Origin: a virus
Taxonomy: Duplodnaviria > Caudoviricetes
Virus record (IMG/VR): IMGVR_UViG_3300028591_000138
Location: 1 to 64,000 of that record
Strand: one strand, 5' to 3'
DNA length: 64,000 bases
Made by a program: the position numbers and the translations under genes. This document shows, piece after piece, positions 1,261-60,896 of the stretch; within the stretch, counting starts at the first letter, position 1; every line of letters starts with the position of its first letter. Below the pieces are notes generated by a model. The model was not told the origin of the DNA. It did not search any database and saw nothing but the letters and a program-made list of their open reading frames with translations.

Positions 1261-1854
1261 ATGCAAAAAAAAATAAGACTGACTGAAAGTGATTTAAGGA
1301 ACCTGGTCGCCGAGGCTATAAGCGAGATGGATTATTCCACGCTGTATCATGCCAAGCGCAAGGGTAATGATACGATTCTTCCAAAACCGCGTAACACCTA
1401 TTCCGATTATGACAAATTATCGTTTTACGACGTTGAGGAGGCGTTAAACGTGGTGCGCGATGCGTTGCAGAGATATAGTGGAGGCGAACCAAGGGTGGAA
1501 GGCACCAGTGGACAGGCTAGAGCGCTTTTACCACTGCTTGACAAGATTGAGGCTTTCTTTGAGAGGAAAAAAACCCAGGGCGGAAACTTGGAACATTTCG
1601 GTAATGAATATGGCGACAGGGCTAGGGAGGAGTTTTTCGCTGCCATGGCTAAGAAATATCCAGGAAAGTTCAAGAGACTCGGTCGCGAAAGCTGGAACGA
1701 CACGGATTTCTACGCCAGCGACGATGACGAGTCGTTCAACACTTATATCGACAACGACTTGGAGGATGTGATGAACTCGTTGTCCCCGCAGGCTAGGAGT
1801 TACTTTGAACATGAAGGTCTTCCGACTGACTACGAGCCACAATATAGAAGATAA
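1261..1854 (+). CDS. LTES-tag protein (putative internal head/cargo protein)
   Basis: N-terminus MQKKIRLTESDLRNLVAEAISE. Confidence 0.75.
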   Translation: MQKKIRLTESDLRNLVAEAISEMDYSTLYHAKRKGNDTILPKPRNTYSDYDKLSFYDVEEALNVVRDALQRYSGGEPRVEGTSGQARALLPLLDKIEAFFERKKTQGGNLEHFGNEYGDRAREEFFAAMAKKYPGKFKRLGRESWNDTDFYASDDDESFNTYIDNDLEDVMNSLSPQARSYFEHEGLPTDYEPQYRR

Positions 1855-1878
1855 TTAAAATTAAATCCAAATATTACT

Positions 1879-2463
1879 ATGAAGAAAGTTATAACACTCA
1901 CCGAAAGTGAACTGAAAGGCATGATAAACGAAGCTATGAACGAGATACTCGGCTTCGGAAACGACCAGATGAACACCTACCGCCCCAGCGACAGATTTGC
2001 AAAGAAAGACGGCGGACTCTCGCAAGGTGCTAGCAGCGCCCCTAACAACTCCAGCATCTTCGACGACATGGCAAAGGGTAAGATGTGGGACAGGTTGAAA
2101 GGCGCGTGGGCTGGATTCAAACAGGGTCGCGACAGTATGGACAGAACCGCTGATGTTGCGCGTCCGTATCAGGATTCAGCTGACAGAGTTCACGCCAAGA
2201 TGAACGCCACCAAGGGAAGTGCCCAGAACATGGTAAAGACTCACGGACTTGCCAGAGACCTTGGCAACACCGTGAAAAACGATGTGAAGAGCTACGAGAT
2301 GAACAACAAGCAGGTCGACCAGGCTGTTGAAATGCTTGGCAATGATATTGAACGACGTCCAGAGGCTTTCGGTCTGCAGCGTCAAGCAGCTCCCGAGGCA
2401 GCACCAGAGTACAGTGCTGTAAGCGAGGCTGTAAACCGCGCAATCCGTAAATATTTAAAATAA
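1879..2463 (+). CDS. LTES-tag protein with C-terminal EAVNRAIRKYLK tag
   Basis: N-terminus MKKVITLTESELKGMINEAMNE; shared C-terminal motif. Confidence 0.75.
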   Translation: MKKVITLTESELKGMINEAMNEILGFGNDQMNTYRPSDRFAKKDGGLSQGASSAPNNSSIFDDMAKGKMWDRLKGAWAGFKQGRDSMDRTADVARPYQDSADRVHAKMNATKGSAQNMVKTHGLARDLGNTVKNDVKSYEMNNKQVDQAVEMLGNDIERRPEAFGLQRQAAPEAAPEYSAVSEAVNRAIRKYLK

Positions 2464-2488
2464 TTGAATAGAAACAATTTTTAGTAAT

Positions 2489-2887
2489 ATGAAACGGATA
2501 ATCAGACTCACGGAAAGCGAAATTAAAAATTTGATTAAAAAGTGTTTATTGGAATCCCAATATATGTCAGATGAGGATATTGCCAACCAATATTCCGATA
2601 TGGAAATAACCCATTTCACATTGAACCCATTAAAACACGATGAGGGATGGAAAGGTACATTTGAATTACAATTCCCAAACGCGGACGATATTGACTATGA
2701 CAGTAGTATGGTTAATGGTTTTATTGTGTATGATAAAGAAGGTGAGAAAATTGCCTGGGATAATTGGATGCCAGATGAGCAAACCCATAAATTAGAAGCA
2801 ATAATCAAGGATGAAATTAAAAAGAGACTGTCAAACAATATTTTAAATGAAGCCATTACCCGCGCAATTCGTAAATTTTTGAAATAA
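2489..2887 (+). CDS. LTES-tag protein with C-terminal EAITRAIRKFLK tag
   Basis: N-terminus MKRIIRLTESEIKNLIKKCLLE; shared C-terminal motif. Confidence 0.75.
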   Translation: MKRIIRLTESEIKNLIKKCLLESQYMSDEDIANQYSDMEITHFTLNPLKHDEGWKGTFELQFPNADDIDYDSSMVNGFIVYDKEGEKIAWDNWMPDEQTHKLEAIIKDEIKKRLSNNILNEAITRAIRKFLK

Positions 2888-2945
2888 GCCATGAACTATA
2901 ATCCAAGTCAAAATAACCAATAAATACATACCAATTCACAAACTA

Positions 2946-2976
2946 GGCGGAGTTGTTTAACGACTCCGCTTTTTTT
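2946..2976 (+). terminator. Intrinsic terminator
   Basis: GCGGAGTTG..CGACTCCGC + T-run. Confidence 0.7.
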
Positions 2977-3045
2977 GTTGTGAGAAAAACGAAAGACTTT
3001 GTATTTATTATTATATAAAATTAATAATCGCGATTTAATAACAAA

Positions 3046-9614: not shown

Positions 9615-9944
9615 ATGAAAAAAACTATAAAATTGACTGAAAGTGACCTCCGCAGAATGGTGATGGAGACAGTGAAAAACACGTTAAACGAAGCTGAGAA
9701 CCATGGGTGGGTCGTTGAGGACGAAGATGCCCAGAAAGCGTACAACTTCGCCTGTCAACAGTTGGGCAAGGAAACTGTTGACGACGCAATCATCAGATGT
9801 CTCGGCAATGAAAGGCTGGCGGCAATCCTGGCATATGTTTTCAGAATGTACGACTTCCGCGAATGGGAAAACTTTTCTGGATATGACGATGACGATGACA
9901 GTTCTGGTGAGGACGTGGATGTGTACAACCTGTACACCCGATAG
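9615..9944 (+). CDS. LTES-tag protein
   Basis: MKKTIKLTESDLRRMVMETVKNTLNE (alternative start 9606). Confidence 0.75.
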   Translation: MKKTIKLTESDLRRMVMETVKNTLNEAENHGWVVEDEDAQKAYNFACQQLGKETVDDAIIRCLGNERLAAILAYVFRMYDFREWENFSGYDDDDDSSGEDVDVYNLYTR

Positions 9945-13663: not shown

Positions 13664-13665
13664 TA

Positions 13666-28496: not shown

Positions 28497-28931
28497 ATGA
28501 AACATAAAGTTACACTTACCGAGGCTGATATACACAGGATGATTGACGAGGCGGTCGATGAGTACTGCTTCAGCATTCTTAACGAAGCCACCGAAAACCC
28601 AGAGCAACTTAATGAAATGGAACCCGCAATTGCAGCTGCGGTTCGTACATTGGCACGTCCCGCTGGCAAATGGATTGGCAAAGCTGTCGGTAAAGGATTT
28701 ACCAAAGGTGTTGCAAAGGCTGGTACAACCCAACTTGGCAAAACTATTGGTAAAAATCTGACGAAAAGGGATTTGGCTAAATTGAGACGTTTGGCAATGG
28801 ACGGTGCTGAAATATTTGCAACAAACAAAATTTTGGATAAAACTCTGGATAACGGAAACAATAAAAACGGAACACCTAACCCTAAAACGGGTGGACGCCG
28901 TGGAACGAGGCGTTCGGATATTCGTTTCTAG
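28497..28931 (+). CDS. LTE-tag protein with cationic amphipathic core
   Basis: MKHKVTLTEADIHRMIDEAVDE. Confidence 0.7.
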   Translation: MKHKVTLTEADIHRMIDEAVDEYCFSILNEATENPEQLNEMEPAIAAAVRTLARPAGKWIGKAVGKGFTKGVAKAGTTQLGKTIGKNLTKRDLAKLRRLAMDGAEIFATNKILDKTLDNGNNKNGTPNPKTGGRRGTRRSDIRF

Positions 28932-28951: not shown

Positions 28952-29245
28952 ATGCGGAAAGTGATACATATAAATGAACAAGAACTGAGGGAACTTGTCA
29001 GTGAGGCTGTTAAACAAGCTGTTGATGAAGGTATCTTTAGGAACGCCTGGTATACCGCTAGAAAAAATTTAGCCAATACAGCTTCCCATCATGGCGCGGT
29101 AACACCAGAGACGCGTCGCGCATTTGAGTTCCTTGGTTTGACTGACCATCGTAATGACGATTGGGAAGAAATCAAAAGGATATTGCGACGTAACCAGAAA
29201 CCCAATTCCAATTCAAAGAACAATAAGAACAACCCAACACCATGA
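28952..29245 (+). CDS. LTE-like tag protein
   Basis: MRKVIHINEQELRELVSEAVKQAVDE. Confidence 0.65.
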   Translation: MRKVIHINEQELRELVSEAVKQAVDEGIFRNAWYTARKNLANTASHHGAVTPETRRAFEFLGLTDHRNDDWEEIKRILRRNQKPNSNSKNNKNNPTP

Positions 29246-29727
29246 GCAGAACGGTATATATAACAGAAGCGCAGGAACAAGCAATTGTCGACAGATATTT
29301 GACCGAGGCTTTAGTTGTGAACTCAAGTCAGGTGACTGACATTGTTGACTACCTTAACAAATTCTACCAAGCTTCGGTGGATTACGCGGGCGATATAGGT
29401 CGCGATGGGTTGCCGTGCCAAACACTAGGCATCAAATATGTAGTAAACGGTCAGCCTTTGCAGACATTGAAACGCGAGGAACTGTTGGATGTTCTTAACG
29501 ATAAGTTTAGACAGTTCATTAAGGACGACGCATCGCGATTGGCTTATTATAACCAAATTTTAACCGACTGGTTGAACAAAAAGGTTAAACTGACTGGGCA
29601 ATTGAGTGTCAACACCATCAGTGATGAAGATATCGCGAAATTCAAAAACCACAAGCCAGCCAAGAAACAGGAGCCAACAGACGACAAAAGTGAAAAAGAT
29701 GATAAAAAGAAAAAGGACTCGAAATAA
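29242..29727 (+). CDS. LTE-like tag protein
   Basis: MSRTVYITEAQEQAIVDRYLTE; ATGA-coupled to the previous gene. Confidence 0.7.
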   Translation: MSRTVYITEAQEQAIVDRYLTEALVVNSSQVTDIVDYLNKFYQASVDYAGDIGRDGLPCQTLGIKYVVNGQPLQTLKREELLDVLNDKFRQFIKDDASRLAYYNQILTDWLNKKVKLTGQLSVNTISDEDIAKFKNHKPAKKQEPTDDKSEKDDKKKKDSK

Positions 29728-38967: not shown

Positions 38968-39351
38968 ATGAGACGTGTTAAATTAAGTGAAAGCCAAAGG
39001 GACGAGATAGTAAAACGCATCCAGGAGATGATGAGTGAAAATCTCAACCCCAATAACAATATCACAATCAAAAAGACTGTCGAAACCGAGTCTGATAAAA
39101 ACAATCCAATAAATACCCTGGCAAGCGTTGAACGCACAGCACGCGGGCTTGGTATCAACACCAACAATCCTGATATCAAGACCTCTGTGGTAGCAAAGAT
39201 TGGCGGTCAGGACAAGGAGCTGACAGCATCATCGGATTCGAACAGTATCAGTGAGTCGGTTCTTATCACCAAACAGCAACTTATGGAAATGAAACTTAGA
39301 AACTTGAAAAAAGGTTCCAAAGTTATAAAAGTAAAAAACATCGTGAAATAA
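38968..39351 (+). CDS. LSES-tag protein
   Basis: MRRVKLSESQRDEIVKRIQEMMSE. Confidence 0.7.
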   Translation: MRRVKLSESQRDEIVKRIQEMMSENLNPNNNITIKKTVETESDKNNPINTLASVERTARGLGINTNNPDIKTSVVAKIGGQDKELTASSDSNSISESVLITKQQLMEMKLRNLKKGSKVIKVKNIVK

Positions 39352-40489: not shown

Positions 40490-42373
40490 ATGGCAATAAA
40501 TTTAGCTGAAGAATACAAGAAATGCTATCTAGACAAGACGAGAAAATACTTTATAGAAAACTACCTTTCAACATTTAACGCCGATATTGGAAGGGAGGTA
40601 CCGTTTAAGGTATTCCCACGCCAATATGAATTCCTTAAGAGTTTATGTATCAACGATAACACCATTGCAATCAAACACCGTCAGGCTGGTATAACAACCA
40701 TTTCGGCGGCTTGGGCAACTGGGCAGTGTGTATTCGCTAAAAAAGACGCACCCGAAACGATTCTGTGTATCGGCAACAAACTCGATATATCCGAACAGTT
40801 GCTTGAAAAGCTGGGGTATTTCATAGCCCAGGTTCCAAGATGGATGTGGGGCAGCGAGTTCTGGTCACCAGACCCGAACAGCGAGAAAAACACCAAAAGT
40901 ATTTTCAAGTCACGTAACAAGGATAAAATCGAACTGTTTAACGGGTGTAAGATATATGCCCGTTCATCGGGACCGAATGCCGCTCGTGGTATCTCGGCTG
41001 TATCTATACTTATTTTCGACGAGGCTGCATTCATTGAGAACGGTCCCGCCGTTTATTCACAGGCTGTAGCTGCTACGGCATCGGTAAAGAACGCCAAAAT
41101 TATAATGGTTTCAACACCGAACGGTAAAGACCAACTGTACTATACAACTTACGCCCAGGCTCTCAGCGGTGATAACAACTATCATCCAGTGGAGTTCAAA
41201 TGGTTCCAGGATTTACGTTACCAACGCAACCTTAAATGGAGTAGGAAGAATGAACAGACGGGTGAGATTGAGTGGGATATTGACCCAGTTATAAACGCGG
41301 AGGGAGATATTATCTATAACGAGGAACGCTGGCGCCGTCTTGAAAGGGAAGGGTGGAAGCCTGAAAGCCCGTGGTATATCAAGATGTGCAAGTCGTTCAA
41401 TAATGACGAGCAGAAAATTGCACAGGAGTTGGATGTGTCGTTTCTCGGGTCGGCGGATAACGTTATACCAGTGGATGTCATTGAGGCTCATTTGAAACAG
41501 AACGTTATAGATGTAACAGCTGACGATAAATGGGATTTGTGGGACCCGCTCGTCAAGGAGACTTGGATATGGCAAGACCCGATTCCTGGTCACAGGTATG
41601 TGTGCGCCGTGGACGCTTCATCTGGTGCCGCTGATGATAGAACTGCGATTGAAATTATCGACGTTGACGCTATTGACGAGTATGGTAAACCTTATTTCAA
41701 TCAGGTTTTGGAATATTACGGCAAGCGTACTGGTGACGATATTGGCGAGATTGTTTACCACTACGCCACGGCATATAACAATGCCCTTGTGGTTGTAGAG
41801 TGTATCGGCGGCTATGGCGACGCTGTAATCCTGACGTTGATGGCTAAGAAATATAAGAATATCTACTACGACGAACCAGGTCTTAAAACTTACACTGTAC
41901 AGAAAGCATATTCCAAGTTCAACCTTAAGGACGGCGACCAGCTTCCTGGTTTCAGAACCAACGCTGTTCGTGTTCAGATGATTGGTAATTTTGTAACCAT
42001 GTTGAAAGAAAACGGTTTCCGTGTGAGAAGTAAACGTGTTATCAAGGAAATGGATACATGGATTTGGAAGAACGGTCGCCCAGACCATATGGACGGCTGT
42101 CACGATGACTCACTAACATGTCTGGCTATGGCGTTGTTTATTATTCAGTTCTATGTTATTAAGAATGACAAGGATAAGTCAATGGCTAAAACAATGCTTG
42201 TTTCGTTTAGGGTTAATAATATGGGCAGAAACAACACCCAACAGAACTATGAATACAACAAACCCGTATCATCTGGAAGACCAATGCCTTTCTACACTAA
42301 CAACAGTCAGGAAAGACAAAGACAGAAAGAAATGAAAGCCCTTCTGATGCTGGCGGGCTTCGGAAAAAAATAG
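40490..42373 (+). CDS. terL: Terminase large subunit (T4 gp17-like)
   Basis: KHRQAGITT Walker A, LIFDEAAF Walker B, VSTPNG, QELDVSFLGS, nuclease AVDASSG and HDDSL. Confidence 0.95.
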   Translation: MAINLAEEYKKCYLDKTRKYFIENYLSTFNADIGREVPFKVFPRQYEFLKSLCINDNTIAIKHRQAGITTISAAWATGQCVFAKKDAPETILCIGNKLDISEQLLEKLGYFIAQVPRWMWGSEFWSPDPNSEKNTKSIFKSRNKDKIELFNGCKIYARSSGPNAARGISAVSILIFDEAAFIENGPAVYSQAVAATASVKNAKIIMVSTPNGKDQLYYTTYAQALSGDNNYHPVEFKWFQDLRYQRNLKWSRKNEQTGEIEWDIDPVINAEGDIIYNEERWRRLEREGWKPESPWYIKMCKSFNNDEQKIAQELDVSFLGSADNVIPVDVIEAHLKQNVIDVTADDKWDLWDPLVKETWIWQDPIPGHRYVCAVDASSGAADDRTAIEIIDVDAIDEYGKPYFNQVLEYYGKRTGDDIGEIVYHYATAYNNALVVVECIGGYGDAVILTLMAKKYKNIYYDEPGLKTYTVQKAYSKFNLKDGDQLPGFRTNAVRVQMIGNFVTMLKENGFRVRSKRVIKEMDTWIWKNGRPDHMDGCHDDSLTCLAMALFIIQFYVIKNDKDKSMAKTMLVSFRVNNMGRNNTQQNYEYNKPVSSGRPMPFYTNNSQERQRQKEMKALLMLAGFGKK

Positions 42374-42416: not shown

Positions 42417-42878
42417 ATGAAGAAAACTATAAGACTCACGGAAAGTGAGCTGAAACAGTTGATTGTGAATGTTATCAACGAAACATATCAAACACCTAAA
42501 AGACGTGTCAATGAAGGTCTGACCTATCATAAACTCGGTCAACTCTTGACTACTGGCAGTGACGAACATGACCTTGATGAAGGCGTTGAGGCTGTAGCTG
42601 GAGACGTGGCTAACAAGGTGGCGAGCGACGCCACTGGAAATGCATCTGGTAATTTCCTTGGTAGTGTGAGCGGTGACGTTATGCAGGGTGTCCAGTCTGG
42701 CGACATAAACATGGAAACAGCAAAGAAATTCATGAAATATATGAAGAACTACAATTTTATGAATCCCCTCGCCAATATCAAAAACTATGTGGAGTTTTTC
42801 AAGAGCTTGAACCCAACCGAGAGAAAATGTCTTATTGAGATTGCTCTTAAGTACGGTTTGAAGCTCCCTATCAAATAG
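42417..42878 (+). CDS. LTES-tag protein
   Basis: MKKTIRLTESELKQLIVNVINE. Confidence 0.75.
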   Translation: MKKTIRLTESELKQLIVNVINETYQTPKRRVNEGLTYHKLGQLLTTGSDEHDLDEGVEAVAGDVANKVASDATGNASGNFLGSVSGDVMQGVQSGDINMETAKKFMKYMKNYNFMNPLANIKNYVEFFKSLNPTERKCLIEIALKYGLKLPIK

Positions 42879-42991: not shown

Positions 42992-45043
42992 ATGCCAACA
43001 ATTTTTCAAAGATTAAACAAGACTTTCAGCGGCGGTGTCAGCGGGGCTACATCGGCAAGTTACACTCGCAATGTACACAATTACGCTGGATTAGGTCCTA
43101 ACGACGTTATATACACCACTAGCAGTAAGGAAGAATACGAACAGAAGCTAACACAGCTGAAGCAACAGCGCATGCTGGCTAAACAATGGAAGCGTGCGAA
43201 TTACGAAGTTCAGAATAACGCTCTCGCCAACATGACCGAGGTACAGATGATGTACCGAGAGGCTGACATGATGGACTTGTTTCCCGAAATCGGCGCAGCA
43301 CTAGACACCTATATGGAAGAAGCAACTTACTGTAAAACAGATAGTAAGATGATACAAGTCACTTCAAAATCAGAACGTATTAAGTCGATTTTGGAGGATT
43401 TGATTTATAACAGACTCTCGTGCAACGTAGTATTTCCTATGGTAACGAGAAGTACTGTAAAATACGGCAACACCTATATGCTCCTTAACATCACAGGTGA
43501 CAACGGTATCACTGGCTGGAAACAACTGCCAGTGTATGAGATGCAGAGGTTTGAGAATGGCATGGAGAATCCTTATAGCGCTGGATTTGCCAATGTAAGC
43601 AATATCGATGTTGATAAGGAGGATTCAACTAAGTTTGTATGGGTTGGAAAGAACGAATATATCCCCTATAGAAACTGGCAGATTGCCCACTTCCGCCTGC
43701 TGTATGATTCATTATATTTGCCATATGGTGTGTCAGCCCTTAACAAAGCGCGCCGTCACTGGAGAATGCTTTCCATGATGGAAGACATGATGTTGATGTA
43801 TCGACTGGAACGTTCGGTTGAGAGACGTGTATTCAAGGTTAATGTTGGTAATATCGATGAACAGGATGTACCTGCTTACATGGATGAGATAGCCAATAAT
43901 TTCAAGAGAACCCCAGTGGTTGACCCGCTGACTGGTCAGTTGGATTTGAGGCGCGGCATCATGTCGCAGATGGACGATTTCTTCATCCCTGTCCGCGACC
44001 CAAGTGACCCTAACCCTATCGAGACTCTGCAGGCTGGTGACAATATCAAGGCTTTGGACGATATTAAATTTGTCCAGAATAAACTTTGCACCGCGCTTCG
44101 TGTTCCGAAGTCGTTCCTTAACTTCGAGGAAGCCGCTGGTGACGGCAAGAATCTTTCAATGCTCGATGTGCGTTTTGCTAGAACTGTGAACAGGGTTCAA
44201 CAGATGATGTTGATGGAGTTGAATAAAGTGTGTATCATTCACCTTTATTTACTTGGGTTCAGCGATGAACTCACTAATTTCCAACTGTCAATGAACAATG
44301 CTTCATCCCAAGCTGAAATGCTTGAGCTTGACAACTTGTCCAAAAAGATTGAGATGGCGAAGAGTGCTGTTGCCGACCCAGGCGGCGGACTGCCAATCAT
44401 GTCTGTCACTAGAGCATGTAAACAAATTCTGGGGTGGAGCAACAAGGAAATCAGCGACAATCTGGAGGAACTCAGACTTGAAAAAGCTCTGGCAACGGAA
44501 CTTGAACAGACGGCTGCCATTATTAAGAAAACAGGTTTGTTTGATAAAGTAGACAACCTCTACGGCGAGCCTGGTGCTGACTACGGTAACAATGCTGGTG
44601 GGCAGGGTCAAGAGGGTGGCGATGCTGGTGGAGCACCTGGTGGTGGAGCACCTCCCATGGGTGACGATATGGAGGGCGGTGATATGAGTGGTGCCGATGG
44701 AAGCATGGATATGGGCGATGTGGCTGCTATGGAAGGCGGTGACGCTGGCGGTGACGCTGGCGGTGACGCGGCGCCTTTAGCCGAGGCTTTGTTCAGAAAC
44801 CGCTTATTTAAGAAAACGTTGACTGAACAACGTAAATACGCACAGGCACTTGCTGAGCATAACAAACGTGAAACTTTGGAGACTGAACATACAGTACCTA
44901 TCTATGAGAAGAATTTTCTGGTCAACGAGGAACTGAACTCCATCTCGAACCAACTCCAGAGTATTATCGACAGTGGCGCTGAGGAAATTGGAAAACCTCG
45001 GAAGATTGCCTTGACTGAAATGACCGAGCCAAAAAACGAGTAA
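42992..45043 (+). CDS. Portal protein (T4 gp20-like) with low-complexity C-terminal extension
   Basis: PYG.S.L..ARR.W..L.MMED...YRL.R..ERRVFKVNVGN, DFFIPVR, IETL, ALRVPKSFL, DVRFARTVNRVQ. Confidence 0.92.
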   Translation: MPTIFQRLNKTFSGGVSGATSASYTRNVHNYAGLGPNDVIYTTSSKEEYEQKLTQLKQQRMLAKQWKRANYEVQNNALANMTEVQMMYREADMMDLFPEIGAALDTYMEEATYCKTDSKMIQVTSKSERIKSILEDLIYNRLSCNVVFPMVTRSTVKYGNTYMLLNITGDNGITGWKQLPVYEMQRFENGMENPYSAGFANVSNIDVDKEDSTKFVWVGKNEYIPYRNWQIAHFRLLYDSLYLPYGVSALNKARRHWRMLSMMEDMMLMYRLERSVERRVFKVNVGNIDEQDVPAYMDEIANNFKRTPVVDPLTGQLDLRRGIMSQMDDFFIPVRDPSDPNPIETLQAGDNIKALDDIKFVQNKLCTALRVPKSFLNFEEAAGDGKNLSMLDVRFARTVNRVQQMMLMELNKVCIIHLYLLGFSDELTNFQLSMNNASSQAEMLELDNLSKKIEMAKSAVADPGGGLPIMSVTRACKQILGWSNKEISDNLEELRLEKALATELEQTAAIIKKTGLFDKVDNLYGEPGADYGNNAGGQGQEGGDAGGAPGGGAPPMGDDMEGGDMSGADGSMDMGDVAAMEGGDAGGDAGGDAAPLAEALFRNRLFKKTLTEQRKYAQALAEHNKRETLETEHTVPIYEKNFLVNEELNSISNQLQSIIDSGAEEIGKPRKIALTEMTEPKNE

Positions 45044-45074: not shown

Positions 45075-46010
45075 ATGAACAATAAGATAAACCAAAACAT
45101 AGACAAGGGTGTCGAGCTGCTGAACGAAGCTCTGAACCAATACGAGGCAGGAAATAACACCACAGCGTACAAAATATACCAAGAAGCTGGCAAATACCTG
45201 ACAGAAGCCGACACAAAACTCAACAGCGAGGATGGTAAAGTTTCCATGCTCTACGGGGATAACCGTAACTTCGGTGTTGCTTATAAAGTTTTCGAGTCAA
45301 ACACCAAGAGCCTGTTGAAAAACAAGGAAGGTCAGGCGAGGTTAAAGACAATCATGAAACTCATTAAAGAGAATGCTGTTTTGAAAAGTGAGTTCGATAT
45401 TTACAACGTCTTCACCAACCCAGTGAACGTGGCAAACGTCCAGGAATATGTAAACGAAGCCGTGGCTCTCATCAAGCAAATTCCCGCTAAGGAACTGCGC
45501 GAAAATAATGAAAAACTGGTAAATCTTTTCAAAGAGTGCGAACTTAATGAGAATATTACCATGACCGAGGATGAGACCGTACTCTATGAGGCGATTGAGT
45601 ATATGATTCTTAATAAAAAGAATTTTCAGAACATTAACAAATACAACAAGATACAAAAACAACTTTGTGAATATGTATCTGAAAACAATAGTCTTGTCAC
45701 AGAAGGGGTTAACCTTGACACCATATACAAGGAAAAGGTCGATGAGATGGTTGATAAACATAGCAAGGAACTGAACGAAGATGAAGTGAAACTCATACGC
45801 GATATGAGCGACCCCCAGAAAGCTAAGAAACTTTTCCACGAATATAAAACCAGTGTCACAGCTCTAGTGAAGGAACAAATTGAAAAGGGTGCCGACACCG
45901 AGGCTTGGAACTCCATACTGGAAAAAATAAACAACAAAGTGTACGAGGAAAAGACAGCCCTTACCGATATAGCCGAACTTATCGAGATTAAAAACGAGAT
46001 AGAAGATTAA
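45075..46010 (+). CDS. Hypothetical helical protein (probable head assembly)
   Basis: Follows the portal, has its own TATTTATA. Confidence 0.7.
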   Translation: MNNKINQNIDKGVELLNEALNQYEAGNNTTAYKIYQEAGKYLTEADTKLNSEDGKVSMLYGDNRNFGVAYKVFESNTKSLLKNKEGQARLKTIMKLIKENAVLKSEFDIYNVFTNPVNVANVQEYVNEAVALIKQIPAKELRENNEKLVNLFKECELNENITMTEDETVLYEAIEYMILNKKNFQNINKYNKIQKQLCEYVSENNSLVTEGVNLDTIYKEKVDEMVDKHSKELNEDEVKLIRDMSDPQKAKKLFHEYKTSVTALVKEQIEKGADTEAWNSILEKINNKVYEEKTALTDIAELIEIKNEIED

Positions 46011-46110: not shown

Positions 46111-47133
46111 ATGAAAAAACAAGTAACATTAACTGAATCGGAATTACAATCGATTATATTGGAGGCTATACAGGAGAACTGGTGGCAGCGTAATATGCGT
46201 GGCACGGTGGGTAGAACCAACGCACAAATACAGGATGCTTTGAAACGTCTGCAGCAATCTGACCAACTCATCATGCAGTTCAGACAGGAAATGCAGCAAG
46301 CCCAGTCTCAGCCAAACGCAATAGAACAACATAACCAAGGTGTCGCTCAGAGACAACAGCAGATGTTCGGACAGCAACAGGGGCAACAGCAAGGTCAACA
46401 GGGACAACCTCAGACTCAACAGCCACAGCAGATATACCAGCAACCTCAACCACAACAGCAAACTTACAAACAGGGTATGAATGAGGATGCTAACACCACT
46501 GCCAGGACATTGGGCGGCGCAGCGATTGGCACCGCGATATTACCTGGCGTGGGTACGGCTATTGGTGCTGGCATTGGCGCTGGTAGCGCTCTAATAAAGA
46601 ATTGTCTTATGATGAAGGGTCCTTTTGCTACCTTGTCGAAAGCTTTTCAATTAAGAGCCCAGGCTTATAATTTCTTGGCACGCGCGGCTTCCAACGGTCA
46701 GGATGTTTCAGCTGTCAAAGATACGCTTCTAAACTTTGATGCACAGAAAGCTGTGGGACAGCGGCAAAACCAAAATGGGCAGCAGCAAGGACAACAACAG
46801 GGTCAACAGCAAGGTCAGCAAGGGAACAACAGTCAAGCGACGGCAACCAACTGGAAGCAGGCTGAGGCTGAGATAAACCAGGTTGTTAAGGGCAACTTTG
46901 CCAACTGGCCTCAGAAATGTAAACAGGCTGGCTGGTCAGACCAAAAAATAGCAGCTTACAGACAAATGGCAAATAACCCCCAGCAAAATGCCGCTGGCGT
47001 GAACTCGATGAAAAACTATCGTCAACAGCAGGGTCAAAAACAACAAACCCAAGCTCAGCCGCAGCAGGGACAGCCACAACAGCAACAGGTACAGGAATCC
47101 TTCAGTCGCATCCTTAAGAAGCTGACAAACTAA
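46111..47133 (+). CDS. LTES-tag, Q-rich protein with a glycine-zipper hydrophobic segment
   Basis: MKKQVTLTESELQSIILEAIQE; LGGAAIGTAILPGVGTAIGAGIGAG; C-terminal VQESFSRILKKLTN. Confidence 0.75.
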   Translation: MKKQVTLTESELQSIILEAIQENWWQRNMRGTVGRTNAQIQDALKRLQQSDQLIMQFRQEMQQAQSQPNAIEQHNQGVAQRQQQMFGQQQGQQQGQQGQPQTQQPQQIYQQPQPQQQTYKQGMNEDANTTARTLGGAAIGTAILPGVGTAIGAGIGAGSALIKNCLMMKGPFATLSKAFQLRAQAYNFLARAASNGQDVSAVKDTLLNFDAQKAVGQRQNQNGQQQGQQQGQQQGQQGNNSQATATNWKQAEAEINQVVKGNFANWPQKCKQAGWSDQKIAAYRQMANNPQQNAAGVNSMKNYRQQQGQKQQTQAQPQQGQPQQQQVQESFSRILKKLTN

Positions 47134-47816: not shown

Positions 47817-48563
47817 ATGTATATTGGACAAGATTTACTGAAACATAACATACACACTGGTTCCCAGCTGACAGAAGTCAAGAAAGGTGAAACTGGTACT
47901 GGTCTACTTATCGAACGCGACGGTCACATTGCTGGCAACCGCGACATGGTGCAGCAGATTAAAGAGGATATCGCCCATCACGACCAGTTTGTCATCCCCG
48001 ACAAGTTTATTGTCAACGCCGTCTTCCAGAAGTTCGGTATCAAAAACGCGAACGGGAGAATCTATCCAGAGAAAGTATTGAAACGCGAGGTTGAAAAATA
48101 TATCAACGAACGTGTTAATACACGCAGTGCTGTCGGAGCTTTGGACCATCCTGAGTCTAGCACTCTGTCTGGTCACGATGTCAGCCACATCATCACAAAC
48201 CTCCAGTGGCAGGGTCGCACACTTATCGGTGAGATGGAATTGCAACTCACACCTGGTTATAGACGCTACGGCATCCCAGGGACAAGCGGTGACTTGGTGG
48301 CAAACCTGATTCTAAATGATATTCTTGTCGGAGTTTCTTCCAGAGCGGTCGGTTCTGTTGAGGAAGGACTTGGTGGAATTCTGATGGTAGGTGATGATTT
48401 AGATTTAATTGGTTGGGACGTGGTCCTCGAAAATTCTACCCCAGGTGCTAAAATTGCTAGAAATATGGCTGAACTACAACAATATATCGAATCCGATGAA
48501 CGACGTAAAAATGAAGACTTGGTTAATGAAAAAATTCAGCGTATAAACAGTATTTTAATTTAA
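47817..48563 (+). CDS. Prohead core protease (T4 gp21-like)
   Basis: KNANGRIYP, GALDHP (catalytic His), GVSSRAVGS (catalytic Ser), WDVV...STPGA. Confidence 0.92.
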   Translation: MYIGQDLLKHNIHTGSQLTEVKKGETGTGLLIERDGHIAGNRDMVQQIKEDIAHHDQFVIPDKFIVNAVFQKFGIKNANGRIYPEKVLKREVEKYINERVNTRSAVGALDHPESSTLSGHDVSHIITNLQWQGRTLIGEMELQLTPGYRRYGIPGTSGDLVANLILNDILVGVSSRAVGSVEEGLGGILMVGDDLDLIGWDVVLENSTPGAKIARNMAELQQYIESDERRKNEDLVNEKIQRINSILI

Positions 48564-51118: not shown

Positions 51119-51129
51119 AATTTTGAGTT

Positions 51130-51444
51130 ATGAGTTTATATTTGGGAAATACAAAAATCAAACAGGTAAACGTTGTCTTCAATGACGGTGTTGATACCAA
51201 TGTTACGGAACAGAATATCAAAACTGGCATCCGAATTCTCGGTGTTGACGGTACGTTTACTGAGGACGGTACCCAGACTACTGGATATAGTTTGGCTGGG
51301 GCTGGCGATATTGTAGATGGGAAGTCTGCTTGGGCTGACGGCGTTGAGGTTTTAGGTACGCTGGTTGTTAACCACTACTACACAGGCACGACAGCACCAG
51401 CCAGTTCACTTGGAATAAACGGAGATATTTACTTACAGCGATAA
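51130..51444 (+). CDS. Small tail-associated protein
   Basis: NIKTGIRILGVDGTF and GTTAPASSLGINGDIYLQ fibre-type motifs. Confidence 0.65.
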   Translation: MSLYLGNTKIKQVNVVFNDGVDTNVTEQNIKTGIRILGVDGTFTEDGTQTTGYSLAGAGDIVDGKSAWADGVEVLGTLVVNHYYTGTTAPASSLGINGDIYLQR

Positions 51445-51447
51445 GTT

Positions 51448-53330: not shown

Positions 53331-53342
53331 AGATAATATATA

Positions 53343-54347
53343 ATGGATGAAGTTAAAGTACCTTTGGTTATAAACAAACTGCAAAGCAAGGATATATACG
53401 ACTATCTCGCTTCGCAAGGTCGAATTGGTTTAAATGAATTGTATGTAATTCAAAACGATAACGACACCACTGTCAGCTCTATTACTTATGATGATAGTGT
53501 GAAGAAGTTCTACTACACAGACTCGGATGGCAATAACCATGACATCGTCACATTAGCTGTGTTGAAAACCAATATGAATTTAAGCGCTGTTGCCACGAAT
53601 GGCTCTTATAACTCGTTGGATAACCAGCCTAAGATAAACAATGTCACCCTGACAGGTAACAAAACTACCAGCGAATTGAACATTAGTTATAACGACTTGA
53701 CCAATCAACCGTCAATACCGCAGCTGACACAACAATACAACGCTACCGATACTTCAATGGCGATGACAGGTAAGGCTACGGCGACAGCATTGACCAGTTA
53801 TACTCTAAATACCAGAAGTATTACAGGAACAGGTGCACTGAGCGGGGGCGGTAACCTTACCCAGGATAGAACTATCACCCATAATTCCGCACCGACAGGC
53901 TTAACCACGGCTGCGGTGAAGGTTGGCGTCGATTCTTATGGACATACCCAGGTTGGCGCGCCAATTACGGCGGTTGATGTCGATGCGGTGCCTATTACAT
54001 ATAACGTTATAACTTCATGCCAAAACATCAACGCAGCCGACTACGGTACGATTATGATTTTGGGCACCCAAAACGAAACGGTATCCTTTACAACGGTACC
54101 GCCTTTTGGCAGACGTCTGCGTCTATATTATGTGAACGTTACCAGCAATAACATAACAATAACAATAGACCCAGCGAATTTCAGCCACATGGACTATTTC
54201 TTTTTCAACGGGTCGGTATTGACCAGCGCCACTACGTACACAGTGCCAGCAAACAGTAATTTAACAATGATTATCACGCTGATGCAAGGAACTGTTGAGG
54301 GTCAGACTAGGGTATTCTGTTTCGCGGATGTGCAGCAGACCCCTTAA
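53343..54347 (+). CDS. Tail fibre-like protein
   Basis: LSAVATNGSYNSL..P.IN, GTGALSGGGNLTQDRTITH and VDSYGH fibre motifs. Confidence 0.7.
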   Translation: MDEVKVPLVINKLQSKDIYDYLASQGRIGLNELYVIQNDNDTTVSSITYDDSVKKFYYTDSDGNNHDIVTLAVLKTNMNLSAVATNGSYNSLDNQPKINNVTLTGNKTTSELNISYNDLTNQPSIPQLTQQYNATDTSMAMTGKATATALTSYTLNTRSITGTGALSGGGNLTQDRTITHNSAPTGLTTAAVKVGVDSYGHTQVGAPITAVDVDAVPITYNVITSCQNINAADYGTIMILGTQNETVSFTTVPPFGRRLRLYYVNVTSNNITITIDPANFSHMDYFFFNGSVLTSATTYTVPANSNLTMIITLMQGTVEGQTRVFCFADVQQTP

Positions 54348-54445: not shown

Positions 54446-56011
54446 ATGGCTAAAAAACAGATTAGAACTAAGTATATTAAATCTTTGATGGAAGACAAAG
54501 CCAATTTAGCAAACACTTTGGAGGAATCTACCAAGGAGACTTTGAGCGCTATGCTTGACGAATCCGTCAACAAGAGCCTCAGACAGATGCTTGCTGAATC
54601 TGACGACGATTCTTACGAAGAAGAGGTTGACCCAACCGAGACTCAGTTCAACAACGAACCAGAAGACGACAATACGGAAGACACCGTAGATGTCGACCTT
54701 GAAAGCGGTGACGCCAATGTCTGCAAGGACGGTGAATGCAGCACCGAGGGTGACGATGTCTGGACGGGACTTGAAGACTGCAGGGACGAGGATGGTGAAT
54801 ACGACCTGAGAGGAAAAGATATCGACACAGTTCTCGAAATCCTCAACACAATGGAACCCGACGAGGATATCCGCATTATCAAGAATGACGATGATACCGC
54901 AACGGTTGTGCCAAGTGGCGACGAAAACGAGTTTGTTATCGATATAAACGACGGCGACGAGACTGAACCCAACAAGTTTGAAGCCGACGGTTTCGAGGGA
55001 GCTAAGGGTGACCTTGGAAACGGAGACGACAACGAAGGGGGTGACGACCTGGGCGACGCCGAGAACAACGGCACCGACGATGAAGATGAGACTGAGTTCG
55101 AGTTGACAATCGACGATGACGACAATGATGAAGAAAACAACGACACAGACATGTTAAGCGAAGGTAACGTGAACTTAGGTTACACGGACAACTACCAGAA
55201 CAAGACAGCCATGACCATGCCTAGTGACAAGGGCGAGGGTGAGGGCGACAGCAGATTCGACGGCGGCGCACCTAAGGGTGGCAAGAACAACGTTAAACGT
55301 TGGGTCGGCACTGACGGAGCTAACGGCGGCAACCCATACAGCCAAAAAACTAAACAACCAATGACCGAGGAATTCGAGGACGGTGGCGACGGTCAACAGG
55401 CTATCTTCGAGGTTGAGCTTGACGGCGAGGCTGGTGCTGACATGGACAACATGCCAGTCGACGAGACTCACACCAGAGGTATGGCTCGCAAACACAACAG
55501 CGTCGGCAGAACTGAGGTTCCCGACACCAATGTGCAGGCTGATGAGGAAGACACAAGAAACGTCTACGTCAACGCTGACCAGCGCAGAAACTGCTCGCGT
55601 GCAACCAATGAGAGTATCGAGGCTAAACTCAACGCTATCATGAACGAAAATGCACAGCTCCGCAGTATCATGGCTCAGTTCAAGGAAAAACTTGACGAAG
55701 CGGTCGTTATCAACAGCTGTCTTGCAAAGGCAACGAAACTCTTCACCGAAAATTCCACTACCAGGGAGGAAAAAATCAACATCCTGAACCGCTTCAACAA
55801 GGTTCACACAATCAACGAGAGCAAGGCTCTCTACAACCAGATTTCTGGTGAACTCAAAAACGCTCACAGCGTAAATAACAACTTGCTTAACAATCAGTTG
55901 ACTGAGGCTAAAGGTAGTAACAAGAATATGATTGTCGAGACTAACATGCTCGGTGCTTCCGAGGAGTTGAGACGCATTCTTGACCTCCAAGACCGTATGG
56001 CAAATAAATAA
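54446..56011 (+). CDS. Prohead core scaffolding protein
   Basis: Very acidic, coiled-coil C-terminus, many LxE sites, directly upstream of the MCP. Confidence 0.8.
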   Translation: MAKKQIRTKYIKSLMEDKANLANTLEESTKETLSAMLDESVNKSLRQMLAESDDDSYEEEVDPTETQFNNEPEDDNTEDTVDVDLESGDANVCKDGECSTEGDDVWTGLEDCRDEDGEYDLRGKDIDTVLEILNTMEPDEDIRIIKNDDDTATVVPSGDENEFVIDINDGDETEPNKFEADGFEGAKGDLGNGDDNEGGDDLGDAENNGTDDEDETEFELTIDDDDNDEENNDTDMLSEGNVNLGYTDNYQNKTAMTMPSDKGEGEGDSRFDGGAPKGGKNNVKRWVGTDGANGGNPYSQKTKQPMTEEFEDGGDGQQAIFEVELDGEAGADMDNMPVDETHTRGMARKHNSVGRTEVPDTNVQADEEDTRNVYVNADQRRNCSRATNESIEAKLNAIMNENAQLRSIMAQFKEKLDEAVVINSCLAKATKLFTENSTTREEKINILNRFNKVHTINESKALYNQISGELKNAHSVNNNLLNNQLTEAKGSNKNMIVETNMLGASEELRRILDLQDRMANK

Positions 56012-56078: not shown

Positions 56079-58100
56079 ATGGCAGCTATAAGAGAATTAC
56101 TCACAAGCGGTGCGGTAGGTAATGTTGAACTTAACGCACAGAAGAAAATCCGCCAGGATATTCAAGAACGTTGGGAACGCCTCGGTCTCGTTAAGGGTCT
56201 TGAGGGTAACGTTAAGGATACCGTAGCCACTCTTTATGAGAACCAGGCTAAACACCTTCTGAAAGAAGCTACGGCAGCCGACAACAGCGGTGCTTTTGAA
56301 ACCGTTGTGTTCCCGCTCATCCGTCGTGTATTCAGCAAGCTCCTTGCTAACGACATCGTTTCGGTTCAAGCTATGAACCTCCCTATCGGAAAACTGTTCT
56401 TCATCAAGCCCGTCACCAGCGAGCGCGAATGGACTCTTGATGCAAACGTTTACGATGCACAGGGTAACCAAGTTAACCTTGGTGGTGTGAACACTGGTCG
56501 TCACCGTGGTCTCATGGGCTATCAGCGCACTGATATGCACAACAACGGTTATGAAGGCGGTGCTCAGAACAACCGTTACTACCTCCCCGATGAGAGCGTA
56601 ACCGTTCAGGGTGCTCCTATCACCAAAGTTGAGCAGTTTGTTGACGAAGCTGGTGTTAAGTACTACAATGACGGTACTAACAACGTTAAGGTTAATGACG
56701 CAAGTCATACTGCTTATACCCCTGTTGGAACCTCAACTTCCATTGGTTATGGCGTTGTTGAACCTATCGTTACCCAATACATGAAGAAAACTTTGTACGA
56801 CCTGTTCTACAATGACTTCCTGTATGACAACTCGAAGGGTAAAATCACCATCAACACTGGTAGTGCCACTCCTGTTCAGATTGCAGCTGACGGTTCTTAT
56901 GTGCCTCTGACAGTTCTTCCTGTTAACGCTCAGGATGGTTCTGTACGTAGCGTACTTATCGAGCTCACTGGTTTCCACAGCTACAACGCTGGTCACCTGA
57001 CTGGTCCTGACGGTAACGAGATGGACACTGAGACCTTCCTGGCTTCATTGAAGGTTATTGCTAAGCAAGCTATTGCTGGTACCAACACTTTCACTGGTTT
57101 TGCAACTAACGAAAATATCCAATTCCGCGTTGTGACTCAGAAATACGGTGACCAGATGGTTAACTACAAGAATGACGTCGCTGACGGTCAGGGTCGTATG
57201 TATATCGAACTCGACCTTACCAAACCTTGCAAGATGCAGGGCTTGACCACTGATGGTTATATTGGTGTTGACCCAAATGCTATTAACCCAGCTCAAATTA
57301 ACAACTACTTCCAGATTGCTTGGTGTTCTTATGACAGCCTCGAACTGGAGACTGAGATGGGTGAGGTTAGCTTCCAGCTTACTGCTGTTGACGTTGCAGT
57401 TACCGAGCGTAAACTTCGTGCTACCTGGTCTCCAGAGCTTGCACAGGACGTCAGCGCTTTCCACAACATCGACGCTGAGGCAGAATTGACTGCAATCCTC
57501 GCTGAGCAGATTGCCGCTGAAATCGACCGCGAAATCCTCCGTGACATCCGTAAGGCTGCTCCTTGGACTGAGCGTTGGGACTACAACGGCTGGCAGAGAC
57601 TTGGTACCACTTCAACTGTGTACACACAGAAAGACTGGAACCAGACTCTTATGACCAAAATCAACCAAATCAGCGCACAGATTCAGAAGGCTACCCTCCG
57701 TGGCGGTGCTAACTGGATTATCGTGTCGGCTGAAATCAGCGCTGTGCTGAACGACCTCGAATACTTCCACGTAACTGACGCTTCTGCAGAAAGCGACACT
57801 TACAACATGGGTATCGAGAAGGTTGGTGCTCTCCAAGGACGTTACAACGTCACCGTTGACCCATACGCACCTCACTGGTCGCTCATTATGGGACACCACG
57901 GTACGAGCTTGCTCGACACTGGTTACATCTACGCACCTTATGTGCCGATGGCATTAACCCCAACAATGTACAACCCATTCAACTTCGCACCTATCAAGGG
58001 TATCTGCACCAGGTACGCTAAGAAACTGGTTAACAACCGTTACTTCGGTTCAATCAAGTGTGATGGTCTGATGCACTGGGATATCAACGAGATGAGATAG
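56079..58100 (+). CDS. Major capsid protein (T4 gp23-like) with insertions
   Basis: LYENQA, FPLIRRVF..L.ANDIVSVQAM, RKLRATWSPELAQD....H.IDAEAEL, AEIDREIL, YAPYVP, TRYA. Confidence 0.95.
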   Translation: MAAIRELLTSGAVGNVELNAQKKIRQDIQERWERLGLVKGLEGNVKDTVATLYENQAKHLLKEATAADNSGAFETVVFPLIRRVFSKLLANDIVSVQAMNLPIGKLFFIKPVTSEREWTLDANVYDAQGNQVNLGGVNTGRHRGLMGYQRTDMHNNGYEGGAQNNRYYLPDESVTVQGAPITKVEQFVDEAGVKYYNDGTNNVKVNDASHTAYTPVGTSTSIGYGVVEPIVTQYMKKTLYDLFYNDFLYDNSKGKITINTGSATPVQIAADGSYVPLTVLPVNAQDGSVRSVLIELTGFHSYNAGHLTGPDGNEMDTETFLASLKVIAKQAIAGTNTFTGFATNENIQFRVVTQKYGDQMVNYKNDVADGQGRMYIELDLTKPCKMQGLTTDGYIGVDPNAINPAQINNYFQIAWCSYDSLELETEMGEVSFQLTAVDVAVTERKLRATWSPELAQDVSAFHNIDAEAELTAILAEQIAAEIDREILRDIRKAAPWTERWDYNGWQRLGTTSTVYTQKDWNQTLMTKINQISAQIQKATLRGGANWIIVSAEISAVLNDLEYFHVTDASAESDTYNMGIEKVGALQGRYNVTVDPYAPHWSLIMGHHGTSLLDTGYIYAPYVPMALTPTMYNPFNFAPIKGICTRYAKKLVNNRYFGSIKCDGLMHWDINEMR

Positions 58101-59590: not shown

Positions 59591-59643
59591 TTTCAATTCA
59601 TCCCCGAAACTGAAGATTTCGGGGTTTTCTTGAAACCTTTTAT

Positions 59644-59856
59644 AAAATCGAACCACCCGACTACCGTTACTACAACAGTAAGGTTGACCGTTACAAGAGG
59701 TTCCATAAATTCAACTTTCGCAAACAGCTCTTACATAAAAGATACGGTCTGCCGCTATCTATGACGGAACTTGAGATGGCAAGAGAACTTGGTTATGACA
59801 GGATATGGGATTGCGGGCTTGTAAAATATGTATACAAAAATCCGAATAATTGTTGA
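59644..59856 (+). pseudogene. C-terminal remnant of a Hef-like homing endonuclease
   Basis: PDYRYY...RFHKFNFRK...MTELEMARELGYDRIWDCGLVKYVY; no start, abuts the IS end. Confidence 0.7.
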
Positions 59857-59887
59857 TTGGCAACTATTTATTGTATATTAAATATTG

Positions 59888-60334
59888 ATGTTTATGGATA
59901 AAAAGAAAATAGCTGACGTGGTAATGAAACTGTTCCTTTATGGAGATGTGTGCAAGATGATACATTATTCCACTCCGAAGATGCACTGCCACAAGCTGTG
60001 CGACGAAGTGAGGGATAGTATCACGACATTTGCTGACGATTTGGCTGAAAAGGGGTTTGGTATCACTGGCAAACCTGAGTTCGGCGATTTCTCGCTGAAA
60101 CTTAACATCACAGTTTCCAATGATATTGCAGTGGTTTGTCAGAATGTTGTTCATCTTGTCGATGAGTTGAGAAAGGACATTGCGGATGATGATAACTGGA
60201 GCGGTATTGTTTCAATTATAGACGATTTCAAGGCGGAAATGTCCCAGAAGATTTATCTGGCAAACTTTGACGACGTGTCAACCAAAAGACTGGAGGAGGT
60301 TATAAGACGTGTAATAAAGAAGGTTTTAAAATAA
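59888..60334 (+). CDS. Ferritin/Dps-like four-helix protein (DUF5856-like) with C-terminal EEVIRRVIKKVLK tag
   Basis: MIHY....HCHKLCDE...D.LAEKGFG pattern. Confidence 0.55.
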   Translation: MFMDKKKIADVVMKLFLYGDVCKMIHYSTPKMHCHKLCDEVRDSITTFADDLAEKGFGITGKPEFGDFSLKLNITVSNDIAVVCQNVVHLVDELRKDIADDDNWSGIVSIIDDFKAEMSQKIYLANFDDVSTKRLEEVIRRVIKKVLK

Positions 60335-60343
60335 GCTAATATT

Positions 60344-60410
60344 ATGAAAAGAGTTCTAAAACTCACTGAGAGTGATGTCAGAACCCGCTGGCGAATAATA
60401 TCTGAAATAG
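60344..60410 (+). pseudogene. Empty LTES cassette (tags without cargo)
   Basis: MKRVLKLTESDVR joined almost directly, out of frame, to TAT CTG AAA TAG (YLK*). Confidence 0.55.
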
Positions 60411-60419
60411 AACGTTATT

Positions 60420-60896
60420 ATGGACAAGAAAAAGAAACATTTTGACTATACACCATATCTCAAAAGTCTGGCTGAATATTTCAACAAGGAATACAAAGTC
60501 AAACCGTTCCCAAAGGTGAAACTGTCCAACCGCAACCAAGGGGATGACAAGGTTCTTATACGTACTGGCTACTATGACCCCAGCCAGAAGCTCATTATGT
60601 TGTTTATTAGAAATAGGGCAGTCAAAGATGTGTTACGCAGTTTTGCTCACGAGCTTGTGCACCATTATCAAAACCTGGAAGGACGTCTGAGTCCTGGTAT
60701 GTATTCTGGTGAAAAAATCATCGAGGATGACCGACTCATGAAACTAGAGGAAGAAGCTTATTTGAAAGGCAATATCATATTCAGGAGCTGGACTGAGAAG
60801 ATTGAGAAAGAACTTGAAAGTGAGCCTACCGAACACATGCACAAATTGATAAAACTGAACGAAGAACAGGTTGCTCAGATAATTAAATTGAAATAG
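60420..60896 (+). CDS. Zincin-like metallopeptidase with C-terminal LNE tag
   Basis: SFAHELVHHYQ (HExxH) ... EEEAY; ends KLIKLNEEQVAQIIKLK. Confidence 0.7.
   Translation: MDKKKKHFDYTPYLKSLAEYFNKEYKVKPFPKVKLSNRNQGDDKVLIRTGYYDPSQKLIMLFIRNRAVKDVLRSFAHELVHHYQNLEGRLSPGMYSGEKIIEDDRLMKLEEEAYLKGNIIFRSWTEKIEKELESEPTEHMHKLIKLNEEQVAQIIKLK

Follow-up and report, generated by a model that had tools for sequence, protein, structure and literature searches.

A shared N-terminal tag on unrelated proteins of an uncultured giant rumen phage: a candidate capsid-targeting propeptide

The stretch of DNA analysed here, called the window, is the first 64 kb (64,000 nucleotides, nt) of a single viral contig of 100,721 bp (IMG/VR record IMGVR_UViG_3300028591_000138), the completeness of which is 29% according to CheckV. 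Its sequence is present in ruminant gut metagenomes from several studies, as found by a run search in which the run containing all of its sequence words may be the source sample, and megablast with 20 kb of the contig gave no cultured-phage match. The source virus is an uncultured giant rumen phage. Ten genes of the window encode proteins that begin with variants of one peptide, hereafter the tag, which an earlier note on this DNA had proposed to be a signal for loading proteins into the capsid. The tagged genes are listed below with the bit scores given by a profile of the tag. The upstream motif is the element ATATTTAT(A/T), and an arrow marks the position after the Glu of a φ-x-E motif.

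1261..1854, + strand: tagged gene, 197 amino acids (aa); tag at residues 1-22 (nt 1261-1326), ending AISE; 42.4 bits; first of three tagged genes in tandem, with ATATTTATA 40 nt upstream.
1879..2463, + strand: tagged gene, 194 aa; tag at residues 1-22, ending AMNE; 41.8 bits; C-terminus VSE↓AVNRAIRKYLK.
2489..2887, + strand: tagged gene, 132 aa; tag at residues 1-22, ending CLLE; 39.1 bits; C-terminus LNE↓AITRAIRKFLK.
9615..9944, + strand: tagged gene, 109 aa; long tag at residues 1-26, ending TLNE; 42.0 bits; upstream motif at 9585; an alternative ATG at 9606, three codons upstream, is a possible true start.
28497..28931, + strand: tagged gene, 144 aa, with basic cargo (isoelectric point, pI, 10.4); tag at residues 1-22, ending AVDE; 38.1 bits; upstream motif at 28469; first of three tagged genes right after a ClpB-like ATPase gene.
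28952..29245, + strand: tagged gene, 97 aa; long tag at residues 1-26, ending AVDE; 35.6 bits.
29242..29727, + strand: tagged gene, 161 aa; diverged tag (MSRTVYITEAQEQAIVDRYLTE) at residues 1-22; 31.7 bits.
38968..39351, + strand: tagged gene, 127 aa; shortened, diverged tag (MRRVKLSESQRDEIVKRIQE) at residues 1-20; upstream motif at 38943.
42417..42878, + strand: tagged gene, 153 aa, between the large terminase and portal genes; tag at residues 1-22, ending VINE; 40.4 bits; upstream motif at 42379.
46111..47133, + strand: tagged gene, 340 aa, Gln-rich and basic (pI 10.2); tag at residues 1-22, ending AIQE; 39.4 bits; upstream motif at 46080.
60344..60445, + strand: tagged mini-open reading frame (ORF), 33 aa; MKRVLKLTESDV...RIISE; 37.2 bits with profile A1 (see 38968 below).

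All ten N-terminal tags were recovered at the coordinates above and fit M(K/R)(K/R)x(I/V)x(L/I)(T/S/N)E(S/A/Q)(E/D/Q), followed by an amphipathic helix that runs to φ-x-E. The closing motif, [LIVM]-x-E, terminates at residue 22 in seven of them, at residue 26 in 9615 and 28952, and at residue 20 in 38968. When the motif of the earlier note was sought within the first 8 residues of 100 proteins, crudely called from the whole contig, 12 N-termini matched versus 0.006 after composition-preserving shuffling of each protein (1000 rounds, maximum one match). The tag is thus more frequent than expected by chance. A profile made of the first 26 tag columns gave 32-42 bits to ten of the contig's N-termini (91970 and nine within the window), and everything else scored at most 2.2 bits. 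The weakest member is 38968, with 36.5 bits against profile A1, which was built including it, and 1.0 bit against an independent profile. Tags at 60344 (+), 75996 (-) and 91970 (-) are additional to those listed in the earlier note, and the contig, a 29%-complete fragment, encodes 12-13 tagged proteins. The mini-ORF at 60344-60445 runs, shifted by one base, over the start codon (ATG, 60420) of the gene 60420-60896, whose 158-aa product has an HExxH metallopeptidase motif. Decay of the tag, a +1 shift or an indel in the assembly could explain this out-of-frame arrangement. The HExxH protein itself has a tag-like C-terminus (HKLIKLNEEQVAQIIKLK), and no homologue of it was found in five relatives.

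Downstream of the tag the proteins are unrelated to each other, as had been claimed; the sole exception detected by BLASTP is a 16-residue C-terminal match between 1879 and 2489. The codons of the tag vary synonymously (CTG, CTC, TTG and TTA for Leu; ACT, ACC and ACG for Thr; AGT, AGC and TCG for Ser), which indicates that selection acts on the peptide and not on the DNA. One claim of the earlier note could not be maintained. The internal or C-terminal copies reported in 35194, 36560 and 60420 fit a loose regular expression, which finds four internal matches in the contig (these three and 13666) versus 0.32 expected, but the tag profile gives them 0.9 bits at most or nothing. They were dropped as tags.

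In the window the tag is 20-26 residues long, with the consensus M-K-K-x-I-(R/K)-L-T-E-S-(D/E)-L-x-x-(I/L)-(V/I)-x-x-φ-φ-x-E. Its anatomy was studied on 124 unique tags from viral contigs, collected with a search pattern that left positions 13-22 free. These free positions are conserved, with 1-3.3 bits each (R14, I/L15, V/I16, K17, R18, V/I19, I/L20). The Glu is found at position 22 in 112 of the 124 tags and at position 26 in 11, where the helix is one turn longer and the end reads φ-L-x-E; [LIVM]-x-E terminates at residue 21-27 in all 124. The conservation boundary at the terminal Glu is sharp, the information per position being 3.3 bits at residue 22, less than 0.7 from residue 24 and about 0.1-0.2 from residue 31. 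In the predicted structure of the tag, a basic amphipathic helix follows a short β-strand. This shape comes from a single-sequence AlphaFold2 model of P0116, a natural 77-aa protein with two tags, which has strand 4-8 and helix 9-22, then strand 54-58 and helix 59-75, at moderate to low confidence (predicted local distance difference test, pLDDT, about 70 on the tags; predicted template modelling score 0.42). The two tag strands presumably pair, since they are the only two strands in the model. For the 2489 family, the AlphaFold2 model (pLDDT 48) was not of usable quality.

Membership of the ribbon-helix-helix fold was considered and failed: the tag has a single conserved helix, its conservation stops at residue 22-26, and no Pfam match to that fold was obtained in 162 tagged proteins. 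A Sec, Tat or lipoprotein signal peptide failed as well, the tag being charged and amphipathic and a transmembrane-like segment being present in just 3 of 128 tagged proteins. The tag belongs to no Pfam or PHROG family in the tagged proteins of the window and to no Pfam family in the metagenomic ones, and in the papers searched by full text for the motif none was relevant.

The tag profile was also searched beyond the contig, as the earlier note had suggested: HMMER, run exhaustively on 1.84 billion cluster representatives (50% identity), yielded 10,902 matches at E ≤ 0.001. In a profile search of 5.8 billion proteins, the same N-terminus was found on about 75 proteins, with diverse sequences behind it. 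A degenerate DNA query encoding MKKxIxLTE(S)(D/E)L matched, among the loci listed, more than 119 in IMG/VR, on contigs of 5-412 kb; in 596 Gb of prokaryote genomes it matched six contigs. Four of these six, of 113-408 kb (L129, L131, L132 and L134), belong to GTDB metagenome-assembled genomes labelled Bacteroidales, Prevotella or Bacteroidota. Such contigs are probably giant-phage contigs mis-binned with their hosts, and they hint at the host range, which probably comprises Prevotella of the rumen or other Bacteroidales. The tag is specific to viruses, and the unrelated proteins that bear it number in the thousands. The metagenomes that contain it are from rumen, gut and other sources. Eight tag-bearing viral genomes are at least 90% complete; they measure 257-412 kb and have 6-16 detectable tags each. 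The tag is absent from Microcystis phage Mel-JY01, which has the nearest cultured relative of the window's capsid protein (38.5% identical).

The head genes of the window stand in the order known from T4: large terminase, portal, two small genes, S77 protease, HNH gene, immunoglobulin (Ig)-/lectin-like genes, acidic protein and capsid protein. The protease had been announced by the earlier note as gp21-like, and this was borne out by its assignment to family S77. The last line is a gene outside the head module that is relevant to one of the alternatives.

40490..42373, + strand: large terminase subunit (PF03237, PHROG 2).
42992..45043, + strand: portal protein, T4 gp20 family (PF07230, 9e-75).
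45075..46010, + strand: candidate prohead-core protein, helical, 311 aa, with 20 [LIVM]-x-E sites, the densest in the proteome.
47817..48563 (alternative start 47808), + strand: prohead protease, family S77, T4 gp21-like (PF03420, 1.3e-22; PHROG 207; 5JBL, 1.2e-13).
54446..56011, + strand: likely scaffold (gp22 analogue), 521 aa, net charge -76, directly upstream of the capsid gene, with 14 [LIVM]-x-E sites.
56079..58100, + strand: major capsid protein, gp23 family (PF07068, 9.5e-68; T4 gp23 structures, 8e-26).
26025-28481: ClpB/ClpC-like double AAA+ ATPase, 818 aa, directly upstream of three tagged genes.

Aligned to the T4 gp21 structure 5JBL, the window protease has His and Ser where that chain has Ala, two residues that we take to be the inactivating H85A and S140A substitutions. 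As aligned, it keeps the catalytic His and Ser. An S77 protease is encoded by 8/8 tag-bearing viral records that are at least 90% complete and by 20 of 30 records overall, the remainder being fragments. T4 gp21 cuts after L/I-x-E (PMC9026906, PMC3012670). Sites of this type had been pointed out in the capsid and scaffold proteins, and both are there: the capsid protein has HLLKE↓ATA at residue 63, with a predicted propeptide of residues 1-63 (nt 56079-56267), and the 14 sites of the scaffold-like protein are those counted above. In the capsid proteins of the window and of eight relatives (9/9), (H/F)L(L/I)xE↓A(T/S) precedes by 11 residues the first block of alignment to mature T4 gp23. For T4 gp23 itself, the deposited mature chains have 456 aa versus 521 for the full-length protein, so that T4 removes 65 residues. 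The ends of the tags (VINE, VIKE, AIQE etc.) are the same kind of site as the end of the capsid propeptide. The density of [LIVM]-x-E reaches 6.4 per 100 aa in the 45075-46010 protein versus a proteome mean of 1.9; this protein, a candidate for the prohead core, would be fragmented by cleavage, and it also has a weak MIT-domain match. Relatives have equally acidic, [LIVM]-x-E-rich proteins upstream of their capsid gene.

Tagged 46111 is located between portal and protease genes, the position of the T4 prohead-core genes 67 and 68. For the other tagged protein of this region, 42417, a protein-atlas search gave no match with a useful score. An HNH/homing endonuclease gene (PHROG 559, 4.5e-77) occupies 48679-49857, an insertion that separates the protease gene from the head genes that follow. 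In two related ruminant metagenome runs the contigs span the head module and leave uncovered 50144-54000 (the Ig-/lectin-like genes) and 46340-46973 (the Gln-rich middle of 46111). These stretches may reflect strain variation, an absence of contig cover being no proof of it. Metatranscriptomic contigs of one library match exactly the terminase, 47273, 53343 and capsid genes, contigs being unable to show transcription, timing or ends.

The element ATATTTAT(A/T) is located 20-55 nt upstream of the portal, 45075, protease, 49958, scaffold-like, capsid and collagen fibre genes, and upstream of eight tagged genes: 1261, 9615, 28497, 38968, 42417, 46111, 75996 and 91970. The statement that most tagged genes follow this motif is correct, since six of the ten in the window do so directly and the other four are downstream in the same tandem arrays, each following a tagged neighbour of the same direction. 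Within 70 nt and in sense orientation the element precedes 30 of 100 genes, versus 4.3 in shuffled upstream regions and 9 in antisense. The tagged genes share this element, and probably their regulation, with the head genes.

The tag is not confined to N-termini in the metagenomic proteins. Among the best 149 cluster representatives, 89 have two or three tags, one being N-terminal and the others internal or C-terminal. The natural metagenomic proteins P0116, P0120, P0117 and P0132 have tags at both ends or are tag-cargo-tag-cargo strings. An [LIVM]-x-E motif lies at most 12 residues upstream of 48 of the 93 internal tags of relatives (52%), versus a background of 11.6% in the same proteins, and for this reason the tags look excisable on both sides. 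The cargo family of 2489 occurs with either tag length, 22 or 26 residues, and also as a fusion with additional tagged units. Genes 1879 and 2489 end with φ-x-E↓A(V/I)xRAIRK(Y/F)LK (2420-2463 and 2840-2887), and a third, unrelated metagenomic cargo family ends alike (P0037, P0054, P0117). This shared ending may be a second, removable basic helix.

The cargo parts encoded in the window are hydrophilic and either acidic or basic, with a pI above 8.5 in 6 of 10. Matches in Pfam were obtained for only a handful of 162 cargo proteins (10 from the window, 115 from viral contigs and 37 long ones), and they are mainly peptidoglycan-binding domains. For the tagged proteins of the window, neither Pfam nor PHROGs returned a credible match. 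The 115 and 37 metagenomic cargos gave one match each to PG_binding_1, LysM, OmpA, DUF6576, Fusello_VP2_Capsid and DUF4316, with a second PG_binding_1 in the set of 37. No known anti-defence fold is among the Pfam matches of the 162 proteins. A peptidoglycan-binding cargo would suit an action in the cell envelope after ejection. Roles of the cargo in injection and anti-defence, as imagined in the earlier note, are speculation.

In T4 a 10-residue propeptide, the capsid-targeting sequence, is found on otherwise unrelated internal proteins, and the Alt protein is processed at both ends (PMC9026906, PMC3012670). We propose that the tag, as a longer analogue of the T4 signal, is a portable propeptide that targets proteins to the capsid and is then removed by the S77 protease, and we give this interpretation a probability of roughly 60%. 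This is in essence what had been suggested from the window at first sight. The Glu boundary, the S77 protease in all eight complete genomes, the motif at the capsid site and the shared upstream element all speak for a portable T4-like tag, and packaging itself is a step that we infer. The tag would be made together with the head genes and would dock the downstream protein onto the assembling prohead core, probably onto the very acidic scaffold. The S77 protease would cut after the terminal Glu, at residue 22 or, in the form longer by one helical turn, at residue 26. The same protease would trim the capsid protein after HL(L/I)xE and degrade the scaffold. The freed cargo would remain alongside the DNA in the head, with possible ejection into the host. 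We infer docking to the core, cleavage, virion retention and ejection alike.

Several points weigh against a capsid-targeting propeptide. By inspection, the tag has no similarity to the T4 signal (MKTYQEFIAE) beyond the initial MK and the final φ-x-E, and because of this lack of sequence similarity it is an analogue and not a homologue of that signal. The tag was absent from cultured phage records searched by tblastn with the consensus, a 23-residue query that finds near-exact copies only; the clade is uncultured. All complete tag-bearing genomes form one clade, as their capsid proteins are 57-65% identical to that of the window, and the co-occurrence with the protease may reflect this ancestry rather than function. 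The [LIVM]-x-E motif is short and occurs 1.9 times per 100 aa in the proteome, and a conserved Glu at a module boundary is no proof of cleavage. The upstream element also precedes non-structural genes, e.g. 35194, and for this reason the 'late' timing of the tagged genes is presumptive. Finally, internal and C-terminal tags are not needed by a simple N-terminal propeptide, with T4 Alt as a partial precedent.

The multi-tag proteins could be accommodated by a more elaborate scheme, in which the tag is a self-pairing strand-helix connector, excisable on both sides, that assembles unrelated cargo units, dozens of them, into a modular protein core or 'inner body'. The units would be single, tagged at both ends, or tag-cargo-tag-cargo polyproteins cut apart inside the capsid by the head protease. 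We regard this as a tentative possibility, on the unlikely side. If true, such polyprotein-style head loading would be without described counterpart in tailed phages.

Somewhat more doubtful is the idea that the tag is retained on the mature proteins as a docking or self-pairing module, whose partner would be other tags or a hub other than the prohead (DNA, a replication or assembly factory, or a host structure). Many small proteins would thereby be gathered into one complex, and the terminal Glu would merely be the end of the module. The 89 multi-tag proteins, C-terminal copies included, agree with such a module, as do the presumed pairing of the two strands in the P0116 model and the basic, amphipathic character of the tag seen by inspection, which is that of many interaction helices. 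Yet the model is of low confidence, self-pairing is compatible with core targeting too, and no Pfam match, to ribbon-helix-helix or to another family, came in support. Moreover, a retained module leaves unexplained the φ-φ-x-E end of both length classes, the same motif at the capsid propeptide boundary, and the φ-x-E motifs immediately upstream of internal tags, which are in 4.5-fold excess.

The ClpB/ClpC-like ATPase (26025-28481) offers another partner, as its gene is directly upstream of the tagged trio 28497, 28952 and 29242. The tag could be a recognition signal for this AAA+ unfoldase, either a degron for timed removal or a handle for unfolding and threading. The ATPase is kept in 5/5 complete relatives with 33-37% identity, and ClpP is encoded by two of four complete tag-bearing relatives. 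The other two, however, are tag-bearing genomes without ClpP, and just one of the window's four or more tagged loci adjoins the ATPase. The known Clp recognition signals are short, with loose conservation, whereas this peptide of 22 residues is near-invariant. The terminal φ-x-E and its likeness to the capsid site are also left unexplained, and we consider a signal of this kind improbable. Finally, a shared N-terminus without function, either a remnant of gene duplication or a nucleotide element at the start codon for translation initiation or recombination, would fit the tandem arrays 1261/1879/2489 and 28497/28952/29242, the arrays of relatives and the AAA-rich second and third codons that are common in AT-rich phage genes, but it is largely excluded and close to refuted by a peptide that is conserved despite synonymous codon variation, over 22-26 residues with an abrupt stop, in 10,902 clusters whose downstream parts all differ, and by internal and C-terminal copies that cannot be start-codon elements.

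If the tag is indeed a capsid-targeting propeptide, it would define, with more than 10,000 protein clusters, a family of capsid-loading signals larger than any other known from tailed phages. Proteins carried in the head, and probably delivered to the host, could then be recognised from their sequence, and they would constitute a catalogue in which to look for host-takeover or counter-defence functions among unannotated proteins. The T4 principle of capsid targeting would be extended to a distant branch with a different and longer tag, which would provide a second, orthogonal tag for packaging foreign proteins in phage heads.

Mullaney and Black reportedly described in 1996 the T4 capsid targeting sequence carried by internal proteins IPI, IPII and IPIII. 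Like this signal, the tag is a short N-terminal peptide common to otherwise unrelated small proteins of one phage, and it ends with (L/I)-x-E, the motif cut by a serine protease of the gp21 family. The head module has the same order as in T4 (portal, core genes, protease, scaffold, capsid protein), the cargo genes are likewise clustered and diverse, and the trimming of T4 Alt at two ends resembles the two-ended tags found here. The differences are as clear. The tag has 20-26 residues versus 10 and a predicted strand-plus-helix shape, each complete genome has 6-16 detectable cargo genes versus a handful in T4, and there are multi-tag, polyprotein-like forms and C-terminal copies. The present system is known from sequence alone.

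In the giant phages phiKZ, 201phi2-1 and SPN3US, propeptides of head or inner-body proteins are removed by gp21-like proteases (PMC9026906, PMC5694885, PMC10052503). The tag-bearing viruses are giant phages too, and those three cut many head proteins after Glu with a diverged gp21 homologue at redundant propeptide sites; unlike them, the clade described here combines a gp23 capsid protein of T4-like type with a single near-invariant tag. To our knowledge the propeptides of phiKZ, 201phi2-1 and SPN3US share no conserved tag sequence, and their cleavage motif has been described as S/A/G-x-E. The cargo-loading peptides of encapsulins are also short, conserved and terminal, at either end, and direct diverse cargo into a shell of HK97 fold. 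They differ from the tag as interpreted here: no protease removes them, their binding to the shell is direct, and they serve bacterial nanocompartments rather than a virus head. In phage P1, the Dar anti-restriction proteins are loaded in the head via N-terminal determinants (the DarB signal) and ejected with the DNA (PMC9024508, PMC12810830). Unlike the tag, the Dar system is a hierarchical protein-protein pathway without a single peptide shared by many cargos. We know of no S77-type removal of a tag in P1. The concept of a capsid-targeting propeptide is known from T4, and what is new here is the lack of a prior description, the two-ended or repeated architecture of the tag, and the scale.

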